A stretch of DNA of 37,461 nt from an uncultured Bdellovibrionales bacterium. GTDB lineage: Bacteria > Patescibacteriota > Minisyncoccia > Moranbacterales > DUUL01. A program made the position numbers and the translations under genes. Shown here one piece after another: positions 3,232-19,301 of the stretch. The stretch lies in assembly GCA_964406325.1 (NCBI GenBank), contig CAYORE010000018.1, positions 1 to 37,461 on the forward strand, in the 5' to 3' direction. Every line of letters begins with the position of its first letter. Position 1 is the first letter of the stretch. The notes under the pieces are model-generated. The model did not search any database. It was not told the DNA's origin and saw nothing but the letters and a program-made list of their open reading frames with translations.

Positions 3232-3241
3232 TTTTAAGATT

Positions 3242-4993
3242 TTATTTTTTAATTCGTTTTGTTTTGATGTACCAGTTGTTGAGGTTGTTTAAGCGACTGC
3301 CGGTTTTAATAATGGCCTTTTCTTCAACCCCTTTTATTTTGCTGTTTAAAACATAGATATACTTTGGACTGTAAAGGAAAATTGCCGGAGAGTCTTTTAA
3401 CAGATGTTTACTTATCTCAATATATTTTTTATTTTCATCAGAAATAGAAGTGGCCTTTTTTGATTCTTCCAATAATTTATCCACATCTTTATTGTCATAA
3501 AGAGTAAAGTTTAATCCCGGATTCTTCTTTCCACTGGAGTGCCAAAAGAAAAATAAATTGGGGTCATTACCGGAATATTGCAGACCTAAGATGAGACTTT
3601 CAAACTTTCGGGGGTTTAGATATTTCTGTCGGATATCCAGCTGGTTGTCGCTGTTAACTATTTCCACCGCTACACCTACTTTTTGCCACTGTTCTTTGAT
3701 TATCTCGGCGGTTTTCAGTAAGTCATCGGTAGAACTTACCACCAATTGCAATTTTAATTCACTGCCTTCTTTAGTGCGAACGGAAGAATTTTTTTCTATA
3801 TTCCAGCCGGCCTTTTCTAAAAGTTTTATAGCTTTCTCCGGCGAATATTCCGTTAATTCACTGTCATAATTAAAATCTTCTTTAATAAAAGGTTTAATCA
3901 AAGGAGAGTATATTTTTTCGGCATAGCCATGAAAAATTTTGTCTATAATTTCGTCACGATTGGTTGCTAAGCGAAGAGCTTGACGCACTCTTTCATCGGC
4001 CAGAGGTACGGAACCGCCCTGGTTTAAAAGAACGGTAAAATATTGGGGGATATTAAGACTGTGCAAGTTGGTGTCTTGACGATTTTGAAAATCACTGATT
4101 TTGTCATATTTAATTAAACCAAACCCGTTAATCTCTTTCTTATTGTAAGCATTAATCACTTCCTCCTGATTGGCGTAAAAGTTAAATATCAGTCTGTTTA
4201 AATATGGTTTTTGCCCGTAATAATTTTTATTGGCAATCAATTTGTAGGAAATAATTTCATCACGATCGTTCTTTTTGATTTCATCAAAAATAAATGGTCC
4301 GGAACCAACCGGATTCAAATTTAATTCAACCAAAGAAAATTTATCACCGGATATTGATGACCAAAGATGTTTTGGTAAAACGCCAAAGGTTAACTTGCTG
4401 AGAAAGGGGGCGTAGGGTTCCGATAATTCAAAGATAACCGTTTGTTCGTCCGGATTGGAAACTTTAATGGTTTCTTTATTCCACTCCTTAATTCCGGAGG
4501 GATTATAATTGGGATCTTGTAATAATTGTACGGTAAAAACGATATCTTCGGCGGTTAGGCGTTCTCCGTCATGCCACAAAACATTATCTTTCAAGTGAAG
4601 AGTGTATTTTTTACCATCGTCGGAGATGTTATAATCCTTAACCAAATCATTTTTTAACTGTCCTTCATTATCATAAGTAAATAAAGCGGAAAAAACCACG
4701 GAAGAAATTAACTCATCTATGGGACGAGCAATGGACAAAATGGGGTTGATATTTTTCGGTGTCCCGGCGGAATTTACCGGAATACCCTCGGTGTATTCTC
4801 CGCCGAAGGCCGGCACAACCTTGGTGGCGGAAAAATAGTACCTGACGGAGCCACCGAGCAACAATAAAACAAATAAAGAAAGAGCTGTATAAAGAGCTAA
4901 TTTTTCTTTCGGTTTTAATATTTTACCGAGATATTTCAGTTTGGTTAGAAAAGATATTTTTGTTGGTTGATCGTTTTTATCATCAGAAGACAT
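3242..4993 (-). CDS. ABC transporter substrate-binding protein, peptide/nickel type (SBP family 5), membrane-anchored
   Basis: 583-aa ORF with an N-terminal hydrophobic anchor (LALYTALSLFVLLLLGG). Length and sequence style fit the family-5 solute-binding fold (LHLKDNVLWHDGERLTAEDIVFT). Confidence 0.75.
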   Translation of the reverse strand: MSSDDKNDQPTKISFLTKLKYLGKILKPKEKLALYTALSLFVLLLLGGSVRYYFSATKVVPAFGGEYTEGIPVNSAGTPKNINPILSIARPIDELISSVVFSALFTYDNEGQLKNDLVKDYNISDDGKKYTLHLKDNVLWHDGERLTAEDIVFTVQLLQDPNYNPSGIKEWNKETIKVSNPDEQTVIFELSEPYAPFLSKLTFGVLPKHLWSSISGDKFSLVELNLNPVGSGPFIFDEIKKNDRDEIISYKLIANKNYYGQKPYLNRLIFNFYANQEEVINAYNKKEINGFGLIKYDKISDFQNRQDTNLHSLNIPQYFTVLLNQGGSVPLADERVRQALRLATNRDEIIDKIFHGYAEKIYSPLIKPFIKEDFNYDSELTEYSPEKAIKLLEKAGWNIEKNSSVRTKEGSELKLQLVVSSTDDLLKTAEIIKEQWQKVGVAVEIVNSDNQLDIRQKYLNPRKFESLILGLQYSGNDPNLFFFWHSSGKKNPGLNFTLYDNKDVDKLLEESKKATSISDENKKYIEISKHLLKDSPAIFLYSPKYIYVLNSKIKGVEEKAIIKTGSRLNNLNNWYIKTKRIKK

Positions 4994-9661: not shown

Positions 9662-10471
9662 TTAAGAATTATTTATTTTATTAAAGTAAATGGAAACATC
9701 TTTAATCCATTTGGAAACACTTTCCGGTGAATGATTGGCACAAGAATTGCCACACTTCCAAATAATCATTTTGTCGGGAGTGTTACGATGTTGAGCAATG
9801 GCCAAAGTTTGCAGTCTTTTGGCAACCGTTTCAACGGCGTCTTCCGGACTGTCAAAACAGGTGTGTCCACCGGTGCCCATTCGCACTCTCTTTCCACGAT
9901 AGCCCCAATAGTTGAAACAATCTTGTCCGTTAAGCTTAGGGGAATGTTTTCCCAGTTGACTTTCTTTAAGGGCGATACCAACCAAAAAAGCGGCGATAAG
10001 TTTATCTTGTTGACTAATCGGTTCAATCATTTTTTCCATCGGTGTACCCGATAAGATTAAGTTAAGTTGTTTTTTTAAATTATCCTCCGTTTGATTTTGT
10101 TTTATCTTCTCTTGTATTTTTTTAAAATCGTTTTTGTTTATTTGTTGCAGACTGATAGACGAACTTGAACAAACTTTCGTTTGTTTTTTCTTTTTCACTT
10201 TTTTCGGGGAAGGAGTTTTTTGGGAGGAAATATTCGCAGAGAGTAGTTGTTTTTCCGGAGAGAATATTTTTTCCAACTCATCATTGATTATATGCGAAGT
10301 ATCGGAAGTATTCGGAATATTTGATATTTTGGCTTGACTTGATTGAGAATAAAAAAAGCCACCAATAACAATAACTAAGGTCGCTCCGATAAGAAATAGA
10401 GATTTATTTGTTAGATTGTTTGTTGAGTAATTATTGGTCGGTTGATGTTTGACCAATGAATAAAGTTTCAT
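9662..10471 (-). CDS. Membrane-anchored hypothetical protein, shorter paralog of the 8119-9420 product
   Basis: 269 aa with an N-terminal TM (LFLIGATLVIVIGGFFY) and a Ser/Lys-rich linker. It has the same conserved C-terminal domain with four conserved Cys. Confidence 0.8.
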   Translation of the reverse strand: MKLYSLVKHQPTNNYSTNNLTNKSLFLIGATLVIVIGGFFYSQSSQAKISNIPNTSDTSHIINDELEKIFSPEKQLLSANISSQKTPSPKKVKKKKQTKVCSSSSISLQQINKNDFKKIQEKIKQNQTEDNLKKQLNLILSGTPMEKMIEPISQQDKLIAAFLVGIALKESQLGKHSPKLNGQDCFNYWGYRGKRVRMGTGGHTCFDSPEDAVETVAKRLQTLAIAQHRNTPDKMIIWKCGNSCANHSPESVSKWIKDVSIYFNKINNS

Positions 10472-13704: not shown

Positions 13705-16164
13705 CTACATCACGGTAACGGCGGCAATTTTTTCTCCGGCTTTAAGGTTCATAATTTTAACTCCCTGAGTGGCTCGTCCCAGAGTGGAGATTGAATCTAC
13801 GGCTGTACGAATAATCTGACCCTTATTGGAGCTGGCAATTAAAGTTGCCTCTTTGTTCTCAATTTCATCAATCACTCGACTGGATACCAAATGACCGACC
13901 TTGGGAGTAACTTTTAAAGTTTTCAAGCCGGAACCGCTTCTGGTTTGTTTTTTGTATTTACCGATAGGAGTTTTTTTACTGTAACCATTTTCGGTAATTA
14001 CCAATAGAAGCGGTTTTTGCATGTCTTTTCTGACAACATTCATACCCACCACTTGATCATCTTTTTTCAAACGAATGGCCTTAACACCGGCGGCATTTCT
14101 TCCCATCGGTCTTACCTGAGTTTCATTAAAGTGAATGGCTTGACCGTTTTTGGTGGTGATGATAATACTGTCTTTACCGGAGGTTGTTTGCACCCAATTT
14201 AAAGTGTCGCCTTTGGCCAATTTAATAGCGATTAAACCGCTTCGCCGTACTTTTTCAAAGTCTTTTAAGGCGGTTTTTTTAATTTTTCCCTGAGCGGTTT
14301 GCATAACCATAAATTTAGCATCACCATCTTTCGGAATTGGCAAAACAGCGGTTATTTTTTCATTGGAGTCTATTTGTAAGAAATTTACAATGGATTGCCC
14401 TTTGGCGGTTCGGGAAGAAACCGGCAATTCATAGGCCTTAATACAAAATACCTTTCCGGTGTCGGTAAAGAAAAATAAGTCATCGTGAGTCATAGCTCCC
14501 AAGACCTTGTCAACGGCGTCACCTTCTTTAATATTTCCACCGATAATTCCTCGTCCGCCCCGTTTTTGAGTACGAAAAGCGGTGGTAGGCAATCTTTTAA
14601 TATAACCATCTTCAGTTATGCTAATGATGGTTTCTTCGTTTGCTACCAAATCCTCCTGAGAAAAGTCACCAACCTTACCTTTAACAACTTTAGTGCGACG
14701 GGGAGTGCCGTATTTTTCTTTTAGATATAAAAGTTCATCCTTGATAATTTTTAAGATTTTTTTCGGACTTTTTAAGATGGCTTCCAAATTCCTGATTATT
14801 CTTAATTTTTCTTTTAACTCATCTTCTATTTTTTTTCTTTCCAAACCGGCTAGGGTTTGCAATTTCATTTCCAGAATGGCCTCCGCTTGCCGATCGGATA
14901 ATTTAAATTTTTTCACCAAATTTTTGTGAGCGGTTTCTTTGGTGCGAGATTGTTTGATGGTTTTGATGACAGCATCAATATGATCCAGAGCTATCTTCAA
15001 TCCTTCTAAAATATGAGCTCTTTCTTTAGCTTTATTTAATTCAAATTGTACTCGACGAGTTACAACACTTTGTCGATGAGAAATGTATTCTTCCAAAATT
15101 GATTTTAAATTGAGAATTCTCGGTTCAATACCATTAACCAATGCTAACATATTGAGATGAAAGGTTTTTTGCAGTTCGGTCATTTTGTATAAAAGATTGA
15201 GAATTTTTTTCGGAAAAGCGTCTTTTTTAAGTTCAATAACCACCCGAACACCATCTCGATCCGACTCATCGCGAATATCTTTAATTCCTTGAATTTTTCC
15301 CTCTTTGACCAAGTCGGCCAACTTAAGAATCAAATTAGCTTTATTGGTTTGGTAGGTTAATTCACTGATAATAATACTGAATTTTCCTTTGGAGTTTTCC
15401 ACTATATCCGCCTTAGCTCTGGTGACAATACCACCTTTGCCGGTCTGGTAGGCCTCTAAAATATCTTTTTGATTATAAATTATGCCGGCAGTGGGGAAGT
15501 CCGGTCCTTTGATAAATTGCAACAATTCCTCCACGGAGGCATTTTTGTGATCTATTAAATAAACCAATCCGTCGATCAATTCTTCCAAATTATGAGGAGG
15601 AATGTTGGTGGCCATACCAACGGCAATTCCCATAGTACCGTTTAACAATAACTGAGGAAGTTTGGCGGGGAGAAAAGCCGGTTCCTTACGAGTCCCATCA
15701 TAATTATCCACCCAGTCAACCGTATCTTTTTCTATGTCCACTAACATTTCTTCCGCTACGGCGGAAAGGCGAGCTTCGGTATAACGCATAGCTGCCGCTC
15801 CGTCTCCGTCCATTGAGCCAAAGTTACCCTGTCCGTCAATCAAAGGATCTCGCAGAGAAAAGTCTTGAGCCATTCTTACCATAGCTTCGTAAACGGCGGA
15901 GTCTCCGTGAGGATGGTATTTACCCAACACCTCTCCAACTACAGTGGCCGATTTTCTAAATTTGGCATTGTGCTTTAATCCCAGTTTCCACATGGCGTAA
16001 AGAATTCGCCGTTGGACCGGTTTTAGTCCGTCTCGAACATCCGGTAACGCCCGAGAGACGATAACACTCATAGCGTAAGATAAATATGATTCCTCCATTT
16101 CTTGTACTATCGGTCTGTTTTGAATTTTCCCGATAGCATTTTCTGTTTCCGGTTTTTTGGTCAT
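13705..16164 (-). CDS. gyrA: DNA gyrase subunit A
   Basis: 819 aa. N-terminus [43 protein letters not shown] with the catalytic Tyr, and a C-terminal beta-pinwheel repeat region. Confidence 0.95.
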
Positions 16165-17409: not shown

Positions 17410-17482
17410 CGGGGCATGGTGTCAACGGCTAGCACGCACGGTTTGGGACCGTGTAGACTGGGTTCGAATCCCAGTGCCCCGA
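17410..17482 (+). tRNA. tRNA-Pro (anticodon UGG)
   Basis: Manual cloverleaf: acceptor CGGGGCA/TGCCCCG, anticodon arm CACGG-TTTGGGA-CCGTG, T arm CTGGG-TTCGAAT-CCCAG, discriminator A. CCA is not encoded. Confidence 0.9.
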
Positions 17483-17695
17483 CAGGAAGATCACCCGCGC
17501 GGTGATTTTTTATTTTAATTTTTATTTTCTGGCAGAAGGGTACAGTGTGATAGAAAGCACTGGGATTCGAAGGGCGTTAAGAAAAATTCGAGCGAAAAGC
17601 GAGGATTTTTTAGCCCCGGCCCGAAGGGGAATCCCAGTGCCCCGACAGGAAGATCACCCGCGCGGTGATTTTTTTTATTTTAATTTTTATTTTTT
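17466..17695 (+). repeat. Direct repeat of the tRNA-Pro T-loop-to-3'-end plus terminator (17466-17528 and 17629-17695) bracketing a 100-nt GC-rich insert
   Basis: The two copies are identical except for T-run lengths, with an offset of 163 bp. The insert contains a T-arm-like ctgggattcgaa. gcactggga (17557-17565) is complementary to tcccagtgc (17632-17640). Confidence 0.9.
17490..17511 (+). terminator. Intrinsic terminator of tRNA-Pro
   Basis: Stem atcacc/ggtgat (6 bp) with loop cgcgc, followed by a 6-T run. An identical hairpin recurs at 17653-17676. Confidence 0.6.
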
Positions 17696-17784
17696 ATAAA
17701 AACTGACGAATAAAAGAAAGATAAATGAACAAAGGGAAGATAGGTAAATAAAAGAATGAGGGAAAAATAAACAAAAATAACATG

Positions 17785-17854
17785 CACTACCATATTACGA
17801 AATATGGTAGTGGTAAACAAAAATAGCATACTACTATATTTCGTAATATGGTAG
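17785..17854. repeat. Two related palindromes (28 nt and 24 nt) spaced 44 bp centre to centre
   Basis: cactaccatatt-acga-aatatggtagtg (17785-17812) has perfect 12-bp arms. ctactatatt-tcgt-aatatggtag (17831-17854) has 10-bp arms with one T:G position. The central tetranucleotides are reverse complements of each other. Confidence 0.85.
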
Positions 17855-18169
17855 CGTTGATAACATCAGTAATGCCGTAGTAATTGTAGTAGTAGTGATG
17901 GCGTAATTAGTATTAGTATTAGTGAACTTATCTAGGGTTTTTAAAAATAATCAGAATTAATGGTAAAATAAACTAAAAATTTAAACTCCGAAAGAGTATG
18001 CTAAACAGATAGTTTATTAACAGGTTAATTTTACAATTTTGTTTACAGAAAAGTGTTAAAATGTTAAATAACTTTTTATAAAAGTTATTATTGACTATGC
18101 TAATATTTTAGTACCTTTCTGGGGATAATCTTAGATGAGTTAAGTATTAGTATTAGTGGGGAGGAAATA

Positions 18170-18413
18170 TTTTTAATATTTTCCACCAAAAAACCGCCTA
18201 CATCGGTAGCCGGTTTTTTTAATTGTGGTTTGGTGGACGCTAAGGGACTCGCCCTAACGGGCCGGCCCCTCCCCGTGCAAAGCACAAGGGTCCGGGCTTC
18301 GAGTCCCAAGTCCAAAAGCCAAGCAGTTGGCTTTTTAATATTTTCCACCAAAAAACCGCCTACATCGGTAGCCGGTTTTTTTAATTGTTGTTTGGTGGAC
18401 GCTAAGGGACTCG
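18170..18413 (-). repeat. Direct repeat of the tRNA-Val T-loop-to-CCA end plus terminator (18332-18413 and 18170-18251) bracketing an 80-nt GC-rich insert
   Basis: The two 82-bp copies differ at one position, with an offset of 162 bp. The insert carries an 8-bp arm (18300-18307) complementary to 18244-18251. Confidence 0.9.
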
Positions 18414-18470
18414 AACCCCTGACCCCTTCGGTGTAAACGAAGTGCTCTAAACCAACTGAGCTAAGCGTCC
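18393..18470 (-). tRNA. tRNA-Val (anticodon UAC), CCA encoded
   Basis: The reverse complement folds as GGACGCT-TA-GCTC-AGTTGGTTTA-GAGC-A-CTTCG-TTTACAC-CGAAG-GGGTC-AGGGG-TTCGAGT-CCCTT-AGCGTCC-A-CCA. Confidence 0.9.
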
Positions 18471-18703: not shown

Positions 18704-18719
18704 CGTCAATCCAAAATAT

Positions 18720-19301
18720 CTATTTTTTTTCCTTCTCTTCTTTATTCTCTTCTTTATTCTCTTCTTTATTCTCTTCTTTCTCTTCAGCTTTTTTCTTACC
18801 ACCTTGTTTATCTTCGTTACTTTTATTCTCTGCCTTTTCAGTTATTGTTTCTTTTTTGGCGTTGTCTGATACTTTGGTGCTTGTATCATCCTTCTTGTTG
18901 CCATCTTTATCATCAGTATTCTTTTGTTGATCGTTGATTAACTCTTCCTCCTCAACTTCAATAGCTTTCATTTTAGCGGCCTTACCAAATCGTTCCCGCA
19001 TATAGTACAACTTTGATCGACGCACCTTGCTGTGACGAAGGATTTCAATTTTTTGAACAACCGGACTAAAAATTGGGAAAATCATTTCAATACCGACTCC
19101 GCCGGACACACGACGAACGGTGATTGTCGGTGAAGAACTTTGTTTTCCTTTAACGGCAATTACCAAACCCTTGAAAACCTGAATTCTTTCTTTTTCTCCT
19201 TCTTTAATTTTTCGGTGTACTCTAACAATATCACCAACCTTAACTTTCGGCAAGTTGTTTTTCTGAAGTGATTTGTTGAAATCTACAATTTGTTGATCCA
19301 T
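18720..19301 (-). CDS. rplS: 50S ribosomal protein L19 with an acidic/lysine-rich C-terminal extension of about 75 aa
   Basis: The first 115 aa or so are canonical L19 (LPKVKVGDIVRVH...ERIQVFKGLVIAVKG...RRSKLYYMRER). The tail ends in (EENK)n, encoded by a 12-bp tandem repeat at 18735-18782. Confidence 0.9.
   Translation of the reverse strand: MDQQIVDFNKSLQKNNLPKVKVGDIVRVHRKIKEGEKERIQVFKGLVIAVKGKQSSSPTITVRRVSGGVGIEMIFPIFSPVVQKIEILRHSKVRRSKLYYMRERFGKAAKMKAIEVEEEELINDQQKNTDDKDGNKKDDTSTKVSDNAKKETITEKAENKSNEDKQGGKKKAEEKEENKEENKEENKEEKEKK

Follow-up and report, generated by a model that had tools for sequence, protein, structure and literature searches.

The stretch of DNA analyzed here (the window) spans positions 1 to 37,461 of contig CAYORE010000018.1. 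It is ordinary, AT-rich chromosome (~35% GC) of hydrothermal-vent and epibiont metagenome origin, and its genes include those for RNase J as well as gyrA, rplS, ftsK, greA, and valS. A tRNA-Pro gene on the plus strand and a tRNA-Val gene on the minus strand converge on a 478-bp noncoding spacer. The order of parts 3′ of each tRNA is the same: a copy of the tRNA's own 3′ part with its terminator, an insert, and the identical block again. The two inserts belong to a family of structured, noncoding cassettes that are inserted in the T-loop of tRNA genes, between nucleotides (nt) 55/56 or 56/57, and that carry a spare tRNA end. Members of this family are present or absent between near-identical strains, stand in tandem, carry cargo, and are re-targeted.

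The tRNA-Pro(UGG) gene (17410-17483, +) is intact as judged by ARAGORN and scores 53.8 bits with the Rfam tRNA model; its 3′ part from G57 (17466) onward is supplied by the cassette. The 63-nt Pro repeat is found at 17466-17528 and 17629-17691 (spacing 163) and encloses an insert of 100 nt (17529-17628). The proximal copy comprises nt 57 to the 3′ end of the tRNA, an intrinsic terminator, and 17 further nt, and its T-run is T6, compared with T8 in the single copy of the empty-site strain L001. The insert starts with a cassette-specific spacer (17529-17556, +) that is absent from a related tRNA-Pro cassette variant in run X2. The 5′ strand of the stem P1, GCACTGGGATTC (17557-17568, +), is antisense to tRNA-Pro nt 57-68 and pairs with 17629-17640, as indicated by inverted repeats and by RNA and DNA folds. 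It is followed by a family-invariant junction GAA (17569-17571, +), which is the complement of T54-T55-C56, and by the P2 hairpin GGGC...GCCC (17572-17616, +), which varies within the family with compensatory changes and reaches −14.4 kcal/mol on the plus strand compared to −5.8 on the opposite strand. A second junction, CGG (17617-17619), and the P3 mini-hairpin CCC-GAA-GGG (17620-17628) complete the insert (17617-17628, +). The end of P3 coincides exactly with the start of the displaced tRNA fragment. This distal repeat (17629-17691, +) is the displaced original 3′ part with its terminator (T8); it runs into the native flank and equals the single copy of L001.

On the minus strand, the intact tRNA-Val(UAC) gene (18393-18470; ARAGORN; 68.5 bits with Rfam tRNA) obtains its 3′ part from C56 (18413) onward from its cassette. 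The 82-nt Val repeat (18332-18413 and 18170-18251, 99% identity) has a spacing of 162 and encloses an 80-nt insert (18252-18331). The proximal copy extends from nt 56 to the CCA and through a bidirectional terminator plus 23 nt, and it carries the variant GTTG, compared with GTGG in the distal copy and in the empty-site strain. Next is the terminator-like P0 hairpin AAAAAGCCAACTGCTTGGCTTTT (18314-18336, −), whose sequence type recurs in the P0 of many family members. The 5′ strand of P1, GGAC-TT-GGGACTCG (18300-18313, −), runs antisense both to nt 56-63 of tRNA-Val and to GTCC of the acceptor, and pairs with 18244-18251 and 18235-18238 (inverted repeat; folds). The junction AA (18298-18299), the complement of T54-T55, leads into the P2 hairpin GCCC...GGGC (together 18265-18299, −), and a junction CG leads into P3, GCCC-GTTA-GGGC (together 18251-18264, −), with CCGGCCCG at 18265-18258. 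The final C of P3 is at the same time C56 of the tRNA and the first base of the distal repeat (18170-18251, −), which holds the displaced original tRNA-Val 3′ part and terminator and continues into the native flank.

A preceding sequence-only reading of this locus had stated that both identity blocks start at the same place in the T-loop, which is borne out: identity begins at G57 in Pro (after TTC) and at C56 in Val (after TT). It had also stressed that the two periods are nearly equal. The values of 163 and 162 are correct, while their closeness is a coincidence, as periods in the family range from 116 to 172. The convergence of the two modules is real as a layout and merely follows from the convergent tRNA genes, which makes it incidental.

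The same reading held that the shared CCGGCCCG at both junctions was unlikely to be due to chance and that both inserts carry a T-arm-like GGGAYTCGAAG. CCGGCCCG occurs twice in 37.5 kilobases (kb), at 17616-17623 (+) and 18258-18265 (−), each time at the end of an insert, with an expected count of 0.37. The composite GGGAYTCGAAG-N25-55-CCGGCCCG-N5-7-GARTCC matches the two module sites alone and was found in none of 100 shuffles. A covariance model built from 32 sequences, 30 of them from outside the window and the others being winVal and winPro_L004 (near-identical to the Pro cassette), returned only the two known copies in the window, each at ~66 bits (E ~1e-15). Both claims are upheld by these results. 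A chance resemblance or an assembly artifact is refuted and is left with practically no probability. In its favor, CCGGCCCG alone reaches two copies in 3 of 100 shuffles; the composite pattern never does so, the insert is present in independent assemblies, and ~40 homologous copies exist elsewhere.

Filled and empty sites in related strains

Strain L001, from another sample and another assembler, is 99.75-99.86% identical to the window over 8.1 kb. The sole structural difference is that units of exactly 163 nt and 162 nt are absent. The single copies in L001 are of the distal type at both sites (T8 Pro terminator, GTGG Val tail), and the tRNA-proximal copies therefore arrived with the insert. 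The Pro insert is also found in the independent assemblies L004 and L005, and in L004 the sequence continues into a second unit. Logan unitigs, which cannot show circles or copy number, confirm the insert and reveal other tail variants, so that the same Pro module occurs with different duplicated tails in related strains.

The tRNA-Pro site is used by more than one element. In L002, from another sample (positions 1-140, minus-strand view), the same tRNA-Pro has a foreign 3′ end with a C-to-T change that gives a G·U pair in the acceptor stem, and unrelated AT-rich DNA follows directly; the contig stops after 130 nt. A different element is thus integrated at the same tRNA-Pro, which makes the site a recombination hot spot. 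Unitigs in runs X2 and X4 join window position 17625 to 18349 and skip 723 nt. At this joint, the end of a Pro-type module (...CCCGAAG) lies directly against the plus-strand tRNA-Val tail region, and it may represent another locus or strain with the module placed against a different sequence.

The interval between the tRNA loci (17692-18169), which had been described as gene-free, is indeed a noncoding spacer. It is native DNA that belongs to neither cassette and is unchanged in L001, which lacks both inserts. It contains a perfect-looking 76-nt double palindrome (17783-17858) with two arms of 25 nt (ACTACCATATTACGAAATATGGTAG and a near-copy), each of which is itself palindromic. Close to it are the direct repeats TAAACAAAAATARCAT (two copies) and AGTATTAGTATTAGTG (two copies, at 17909 and 18143). 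The palindrome and the adjacent direct repeats are also found in the empty-site strain. Further along, rplS (18714-18800, −) encodes a ribosomal protein L19 of 193 amino acids (aa), whose long, low-complexity C-terminal extension derives from tandem repeats of 12 nt (plus strand, TTCTTTATTCTC).

Fold and distribution of the cassette family

Read in the sense of the tRNA, a unit of the family consists of the tRNA 3′ part from nt 56/57, a tail that often includes a terminator, P1b, P0, P1a, GAA, P2, CGG, and P3. P1b is an imperfect complement of the acceptor 3′ strand, and P0 is a hairpin of the type AGAAAGCCAACTGCTTGGCTTTCG. The 5′ strand of P1a is the complement of nt 57-64 with GGGAYTC innermost, GAA is the complement of T54-T55-C56, P2 is a variable hairpin GGG...CCC, and P3 is CCC-GNA-GGG. 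The second strand of P1a and P1b is provided by the first bases of the next tRNA 3′ part. This layout is reproduced by single-sequence folds of most of 37 distinct members, and the window copies fold alike under RNA and DNA parameters.

The fold is supported by covariation. In a 32-member alignment, 83.7% of the cells are paired compared to 70.4% in shuffles, and the covariation score of 0.380 (0.153 when shuffled) was reached by none of 500 shuffles; slid controls stayed at or below 0.12. Double changes are present in all nine P0 pairs; P1b is only 62% paired. RNAalifold recovers P0, P1a, P2, and P3 unaided and adds three more covarying P2 pairs.

The geometry of the fold centers on the insertion point. 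P1a, P1b, and the flush-stacked P3 rebuild the tRNA-gene duplex from nt 57 to ~70 beside a closed hairpin, and the 3′ strand of the rebuilt duplex begins exactly at the junction. The bulge is the complement of the missing T-loop bases. Type-1 modules have GAA here and the Val module has AA, because identity in Val starts one base earlier. As modeled, the fold would thus present the crossover point at a three-way junction in both window copies, even though they are of different subtypes.

Several other explanations of the fold were rejected. The cores of known ribozymes (hammerhead, twister, pistol, hatchet, and hepatitis delta virus), compared by eye, do not match, with only GAA and CGG unpaired. 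Mimicry of RNase P, RNase Z, or bulge-helix-bulge substrates does not fit the topology. The idea that the P3 3′ strand is a copy of the T-stem 5′ strand fails in L017 and in variant modules. A T-loop preference for TTCGA-R-TCC does not hold as a firm rule either, as TTCGACT occurs in L038 and TTCGATT in tRNA-Glu and tRNA-His, both of which are unoccupied.

A strict pattern derived from the two window modules was searched in a species-representative set of 185,579 genomes, one per species, and found 15 loci with 20 copies on their contigs. The hosts are Saccharibacteria, Moraniibacteriota, Paceibacteria, a Firmicutes metagenome-assembled genome (MAG), Peptococcaceae, Chlamydiae, Gammaproteobacteria, and an unclassified bacterium. 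All 15 loci (L007-L021) are in MAGs of uncultured lineages, and the strict pattern matched no isolate. An intact tRNA lies immediately 5′ of every locus except L009, where the contig is cut. The host tRNA is most often tRNA-Ser; Lys, Pro, Leu, and Met also occur. Each copy is followed by a duplicate of the host tRNA 3′ part from G57, and two tandem units are present at 5 of the 15 loci. A looser pattern applied to metagenome contigs added 27 true loci, along with 13 GC-rich chance matches inside open reading frames (ORFs). The covariance model finds 43 copies in the sequences examined, some of which were chosen by neither pattern, and also picks up variant modules with a different interior.

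The sequence-only reading had proposed a common origin or mechanism instead of two accidents, and had named a pattern or covariance scan as the way to find out; a motif found nowhere else would have spoken against it. The motif does recur: the two modules belong to one structured family with ~40 further copies beside tRNAs in many phyla. Two qualifications apply. As a rule no integrase adjoins the matches, and phage and plasmid collections hold none. Scans of viral contigs gave no true match and a BLAST search of a strong member against phages and plasmids gave nothing, and a phage or plasmid origin is rejected on these grounds. Rfam 15, whose families cover ribozymes, transfer-messenger RNA, and tRNA-like RNAs among others, was applied to the window, the locus, and nine relatives and reports tRNAs only, apart from weak chance matches, and ARAGORN finds no transfer-messenger RNA. 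No prior description was found in the literature, including by a search with the motif sequence, although one may exist outside the searched library.

Other small units share the T-loop junction, the anti-T-arm, and the GAA start and differ in their interiors and ends. They are located in L036 (7666-8020, 8740-8790, and 9290-9470, which corresponds to L065 2230-4030, minus strand), L014 (6726-6830), L039 (920-1110, minus strand), L010 (7512-7703), and L013 (4063-4196). Examples of their ends are ...GAGAGTGACC|GAATCCC and ...GTAAGTTTC|GAATCCC, and a unit of ~52 nt, GAATCCCACATCC-ACAATGACTGAAAGGAAACAAAATATCCATAAGCGTGACC, is repeated among them. Their sequences point to a superfamily wider than the CCGGCCCG type.

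The distribution also bears on the idea that the inserts are decay remnants, namely attachment-site arms of large islands or prophages whose interiors were lost independently at each locus. tRNA genes do collect islands and fragments (PMC4383910; PMC9897764), a module-like structure stands at the distal end of the island family L065-L067, and L002 carries a different element at the same tRNA-Pro. Independent decay would hardly leave ~40 copies with the complete architecture within 116-172 nt, some of them precise tandem units. Covariation further shows that the fold is maintained, identical modules occur at two tRNAs, nearly all matches adjoin a tRNA and do not lie kilobases off, and the viral, phage, and plasmid collections are without matches. 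Decay is therefore disfavored and very improbable.

Strand, tails, and transfer between tRNAs

The fold has a polarity. In P0, 23 G·U pairs compare to 3 A·C pairs on the tRNA-sense strand, and P2 is more stable on this strand in 30 cases compared to 4 (p = 2.6e-5). It follows that the fold acts in one single strand, the one with tRNA-sense polarity. P0 is terminator-like, so its asymmetry could be an effect at the RNA level. Of 37 members, 32 have a C-GNA-G triloop as P3 and the others GTGA, GTTA, or GGAA; triloops with a closing C-G are also seen at about half of the P2 tips. GNA triloops are a hallmark of unusually stable DNA mini-hairpins, while structured RNAs favor GNRA and UNCG tetraloops. 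In the window, a strong terminator precedes each of the two modules, and nothing resembling a promoter is found ahead of them. Triloops and terminators without a promoter lean toward single-stranded DNA as the folded molecule.

Alternatively, the module could be the gene of a structured small RNA that ends in the tRNA 3′ fragment and is tRNA-like or anti-tRNA. Such an RNA would arise by cotranscription with the tRNA or by read-through from it, and tRNA-processing enzymes would trim it; the tRNA-end duplication would be part of the gene's construction, and the polymorphism would reflect gain and loss of an accessory RNA gene. The polarity of the fold, with G·U far above A·C, and the strong covariation agree with this. 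Among tRNA-Ser members there are many in which pairing of P1b with the acceptor 3′ strand ends at nt 72, so that discriminator and CCA remain unpaired, like those of a tRNA; many members also lack a terminator between tRNA and module and would hence be cotranscribed. tRNA-Ser and tRNA-Leu, whose synthetases ignore the anticodon, predominate as hosts. The terminators and the missing promoter-like site at the window modules speak against a small RNA, as do the resemblance of P0 to a terminator ahead of the core and the incomplete pairing of P1b. The loops are mostly GNA triloops or GTTA, typical of DNA mini-hairpins, and not GNRA or UNCG. Rfam has no match. RNA runs do not provide the sequence either: none contains the window locus or L008, and those matching L011 cover conserved tRNA-Ser words only. 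Tandem arrays, cargo ORFs, and re-targeting suit a mobile element better. A small-RNA gene is accordingly considered unlikely.

The duplicated tails are informative about what moves. Identity with native sequence at array ends mostly covers 16-21 nt, from G57 to the tRNA 3′ end, which is expected because an element must restore the gene (principle in PMC4383910). Some blocks are longer and take in native tail: those of the window (63 and 82 nt) and of L009, L011, L020, and L064 (24-56 nt). Over the whole range of 10-82 nt, the duplication always begins at T-loop nt 56/57.

These tails could also mean that the module alone moves and that the segment from T-loop nt 56/57 downstream is a long, variable target-site duplication. 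It would arise by staggered cleavage guided by anti-T-arm pairing, or by RNA-templated copying with reverse transcriptase and template switching, in which copying of the tRNA transcript starts at its 3′ end and reaches the T-loop. In favor of this, each duplicated tail is specific to its locus and matches the native flank (63 and 82 nt in the window, 56 nt in L064), the same module is found at different tRNAs with the proper 3′ part each time, and related strains share the Pro module with differing tails. Moreover, most blocks stop at the tRNA 3′ end, an RNA landmark, and the module bears a strand complementary to the target. The end of the blocks is accounted for equally by selection to restore the tRNA. 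The long blocks overrun the terminator U-tract by 2-23 nt, and copying of terminated tRNA transcripts was rejected for this reason. The proximal tail of L008, which has its own terminator, departs from the native tail beyond ~21 nt, so the cassette brings its own tail there. In the window, proximal and distal copies differ and the distal one equals the empty allele. Neither in the window nor in the flanks of the genome loci is a reverse transcriptase or transposase linked. Movement of the module alone is thus quite unlikely, more so than a small-RNA gene.

Transfer between tRNAs is seen in L064, where the same module stands beside a tRNA-Ser 3′ fragment and after a tRNA-Leu; the complete tRNA-Ser unit is present in L052. 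The Ser and Leu modules are 100% identical over P0 (24 nt) and P2-P3 (67 nt). They differ only in the ~10-nt P1a strand, which fits the respective tRNA, and the Leu copy retains a vestige of the Ser-type P1b. This comparison points to a recent transfer between tRNAs in which the anti-tRNA strand would have been re-templated, presumably by template switching within the quasi-palindrome. Some units carry cargo: those of L036 measure 940 and 688 nt with ORFs of 170 and 92 aa, and L031 has an ORF of 244 aa. The latter lies upstream of a type-1 module and is bracketed by inverted repeats of ~100 nt (2163-2262 and 3232-3331).

Recombination at the T-loop and its possible enzyme

The cassette sits between tRNA nt 55/56 and the original 3′ part, and the tRNA therefore stays intact while the old 3′ part is displaced downstream. 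The preferred reading, to which about an even chance is given, is that each module belongs to a small, noncoding, nonautonomous cassette that moves by Campbell-type site-specific recombination with an enzyme provided in trans. The cassette would comprise a replacement tRNA 3′ part (nt 56/57 to the end, often with a terminator) and the structured module. Its junction site, made of the module end and the tRNA 3′ part, would recombine conservatively with the T-loop region of the tRNA, and the recombinase would be encoded elsewhere. Since the two partner sites have the same right half, both would be regenerated by recombination, which would allow repeated insertion (tandem arrays) as well as easy loss (empty sister-strain sites). 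Islands that enter tRNA genes likewise rebuild the gene, with a displaced fragment left over, and the crossover of many of them falls in the T-stem region (PMC4383910). More tentatively, and by analogy with integron attC and CTX-phage attP, the fold may be the recombination site of the cassette in single-stranded form. P0 probably doubles as a terminator for the tRNA, and a module that moves to another tRNA apparently has its anti-tRNA strand re-templated.

A lead to an enzyme comes from L036, the sole array without a nearby tRNA. It forms the tail end of an island that measures at least 18 kb and has restriction-modification genes, Mrr, PIF1 helicase, and methylases as cargo. The head of such islands consists of a tRNA-Ser, a conserved sequence of ~35 nt (..TTAGTATCGGnGTGACCC..), often a LexA/S24 gene, and a large serine recombinase. 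In L065-L071, the island runs from tRNA-Ser through the large serine recombinase and defense genes to a tail that ends in these cassettes. There the recombinase is within the element and the common core measures 13-16 nt, a combination that the window cassettes do not show. The variable defense cargo behind the recombinase includes type ISP, II, and III restriction-modification, ThsB-TIR, Mrr, and PIF1 helicase. The recombinase family counts at least 8000 proteins at E <= 1e-30, of which the top 120 are all at least 82% identical, and its named sources are Patescibacteria, Parcubacteria, Giovannonibacteria, and Minisyncoccia. The recombinase gene is located at 19667-20971 in L065, at 6001-7305 in L069 (tRNA-Ser 9803-9892, −), at 6001-7326 in L072 (tRNA-Ser 9687-9776, −), and at 10001-11323 in L078 (tRNA-Ser 13785-13876, −). 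The gene stands 2-4 kb downstream of a tRNA-Ser in three of four contexts, and in the fourth it adjoins a module-like site instead of a tRNA. A distant homolog is found 1.3 kb from the type-1 module of L040 and at none of the other loci examined. The conserved large serine recombinase is a candidate for the trans-acting enzyme in Patescibacteria, and as such a lead and not a finding.

Several points weigh against recombination in trans. The window encodes no integrase, recombinase, transposase, or reverse transcriptase, no recombinase family recurs among the 117 ORFs in the flanks (~4 kb) of the 15 genome loci, and most loci examined have no recombinase nearby. The serine recombinase lead leaves the copies in Firmicutes, Chlamydiae, and Gammaproteobacteria unexplained. 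No circular or excised intermediate was seen in the unitigs, which are unable to reveal circles. Empty alleles could also result from plain, enzyme-free deletion between the 63-nt and 82-nt direct repeats. Covarying hairpins are not needed by a double-strand recombinase. The ends that abut the junction differ by module type (CCCGNAGGG, GTAAGTTTC, GAGTGACC) and are too unlike for a single sequence-reading enzyme. Finally, the tRNA-Leu cassette of L064 duplicates 56 nt of native Leu flank, which a circle with a Ser 3′ end would not yield.

The closest known kinds of element are tRNA-integrating islands and integron cassettes. As in islands and prophages of the Islander/Williams scheme, the insertion is in the 3′ half of the tRNA, the 3′ end is supplied by the element, a displaced fragment marks the far end, tandems occur at one tRNA, and sister strains carry empty and filled alleles. 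Under the Islander definition, the cassettes show the bracketing by an intact tRNA and a direct-orientation displaced 3′ fragment as well as the precise empty site (L001), whereas an on-board integrase is missing from the noncoding inserts of 100 and 80 nt. At 116-172 bp instead of kilobases, the cassettes are 10-100 times smaller than islands, without integrase and usually without any gene, and they have a conserved, covarying, multi-helix fold. Identity begins at T-loop nt 56/57, and the classical 7-nt T-loop overlap is not shared. The sole recombinase linked to the cassettes is of the serine type and not the tyrosine type, and serine recombinases are not known to target tRNA genes according to the Islander paper.

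Integron attC cassettes, including integrase-less attC clusters (clusters of attC sites lacking integron-integrases, CALIN), are alike in being small, some noncoding and some with one ORF, and in being stacked one-way at a fixed site. Their site is defined by a strand-asymmetric fold whose outer stem is split by the crossover, with the 3′ half in the next unit; the cassettes have a strand-asymmetric fold divided in the same way, which may likewise define their site. Many arrays have no adjacent recombinase. Differing from attC, the cassettes target the tRNA T-loop and not attI, have no R or L boxes and no IntI, form a three- or four-way junction with invariant GAA and CGG, and carry part of the target gene. 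The attC boxes and the GTTRRRY core are absent, the stem being GGGAYTC/GARTCCC and the junction GGG|GA or GGG|CGA. An intI/attI/Pc head is also absent; the array head is the tRNA gene and the flanks are without integrase. Similar to the folded single-stranded DNA of CTX-type phages, the single strand of the cassette rebuilds a host-target duplex (tRNA nt 57-70) beside the crossover hairpin. dif-like sequences and phage genes are missing in the cassettes, and their single-strandedness is inferred.

MITEs (miniature inverted-repeat transposable elements) and cis-mobilizable elements (CIMEs) also lack a mobility gene of their own, depend on an enzyme in trans, and repeat the same module several times in a genome. 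A MITE is bounded by terminal inverted repeats and makes short target duplications of a set length, whereas the duplication at a cassette is 10-82 nt and the two cassette ends do not form inverted repeats. CIMEs derive by deletion from integrative and conjugative elements and are kb-sized, and neither class shares the fold or the tRNA-restoring design. Miniatures of the IS200/IS605 type, which insert 3′ of one set tetra- or pentanucleotide without duplicating the target and have subterminal hairpins that resemble each other, do not fit, since the cassettes duplicate the flank, have unrelated hairpins at their ends, and lack a nearby TnpA or TnpB. Insertion of the cassettes follows GTTC or GTT. 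IS91-like elements target GTTC, and insertion here is after G53-T54-T55-C56; an IS91-like rolling-circle mechanism was rejected, as its "origin" end would be tRNA-specific and no HUH gene is present.

With large-serine-recombinase islands, the likeness is that a tRNA-Ser and recombinase-headed island in Patescibacteria ends in cassettes, and crossover at a fixed dinucleotide would explain why identity always starts at nt 56/57. Attachment sites of large serine recombinases are plain duplex DNA without hairpins. The window and most copies have no such gene nearby, and the sequences abutting the junction vary by module type. A minority of tycheposons carry a large serine recombinase (10.1101/2020.12.28.424599).

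A broader possibility, speculative and on balance doubtful, is that the cassettes represent a new recombination platform, in which stacked, fold-defined mini-cassettes, some with a single gene, dock at tRNA genes by single-stranded exchange with the anti-tRNA strand as programmable, re-templatable guide. Such a platform would be a tRNA-based analog of the integron or a nucleic-acid-guided insertion system across uncultured phyla. The driving activity might be the ultra-conserved serine recombinase of Patescibacteria, or else another enzyme or a ribozyme activity at the P3/P1 junction. The invariant junction nucleotides at the crossover make an integron-like or guide-like single-stranded mechanism at tRNA genes directly testable. 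If the preferred reading of recombination in trans is right, the family would offer a compact, apparently re-targetable attachment site aimed at the T-loop, the most conserved DNA motif in biology, and would be of interest for recombinase-based genome engineering once the enzyme is found. The cassettes would then be the smallest known tRNA-integrating elements, with ~120 bp of folded DNA serving as attachment site and spare tRNA end, and variation between strains as well as "tRNA fragment" annotations in MAGs, especially those of Patescibacteria, would have in them a hidden source.

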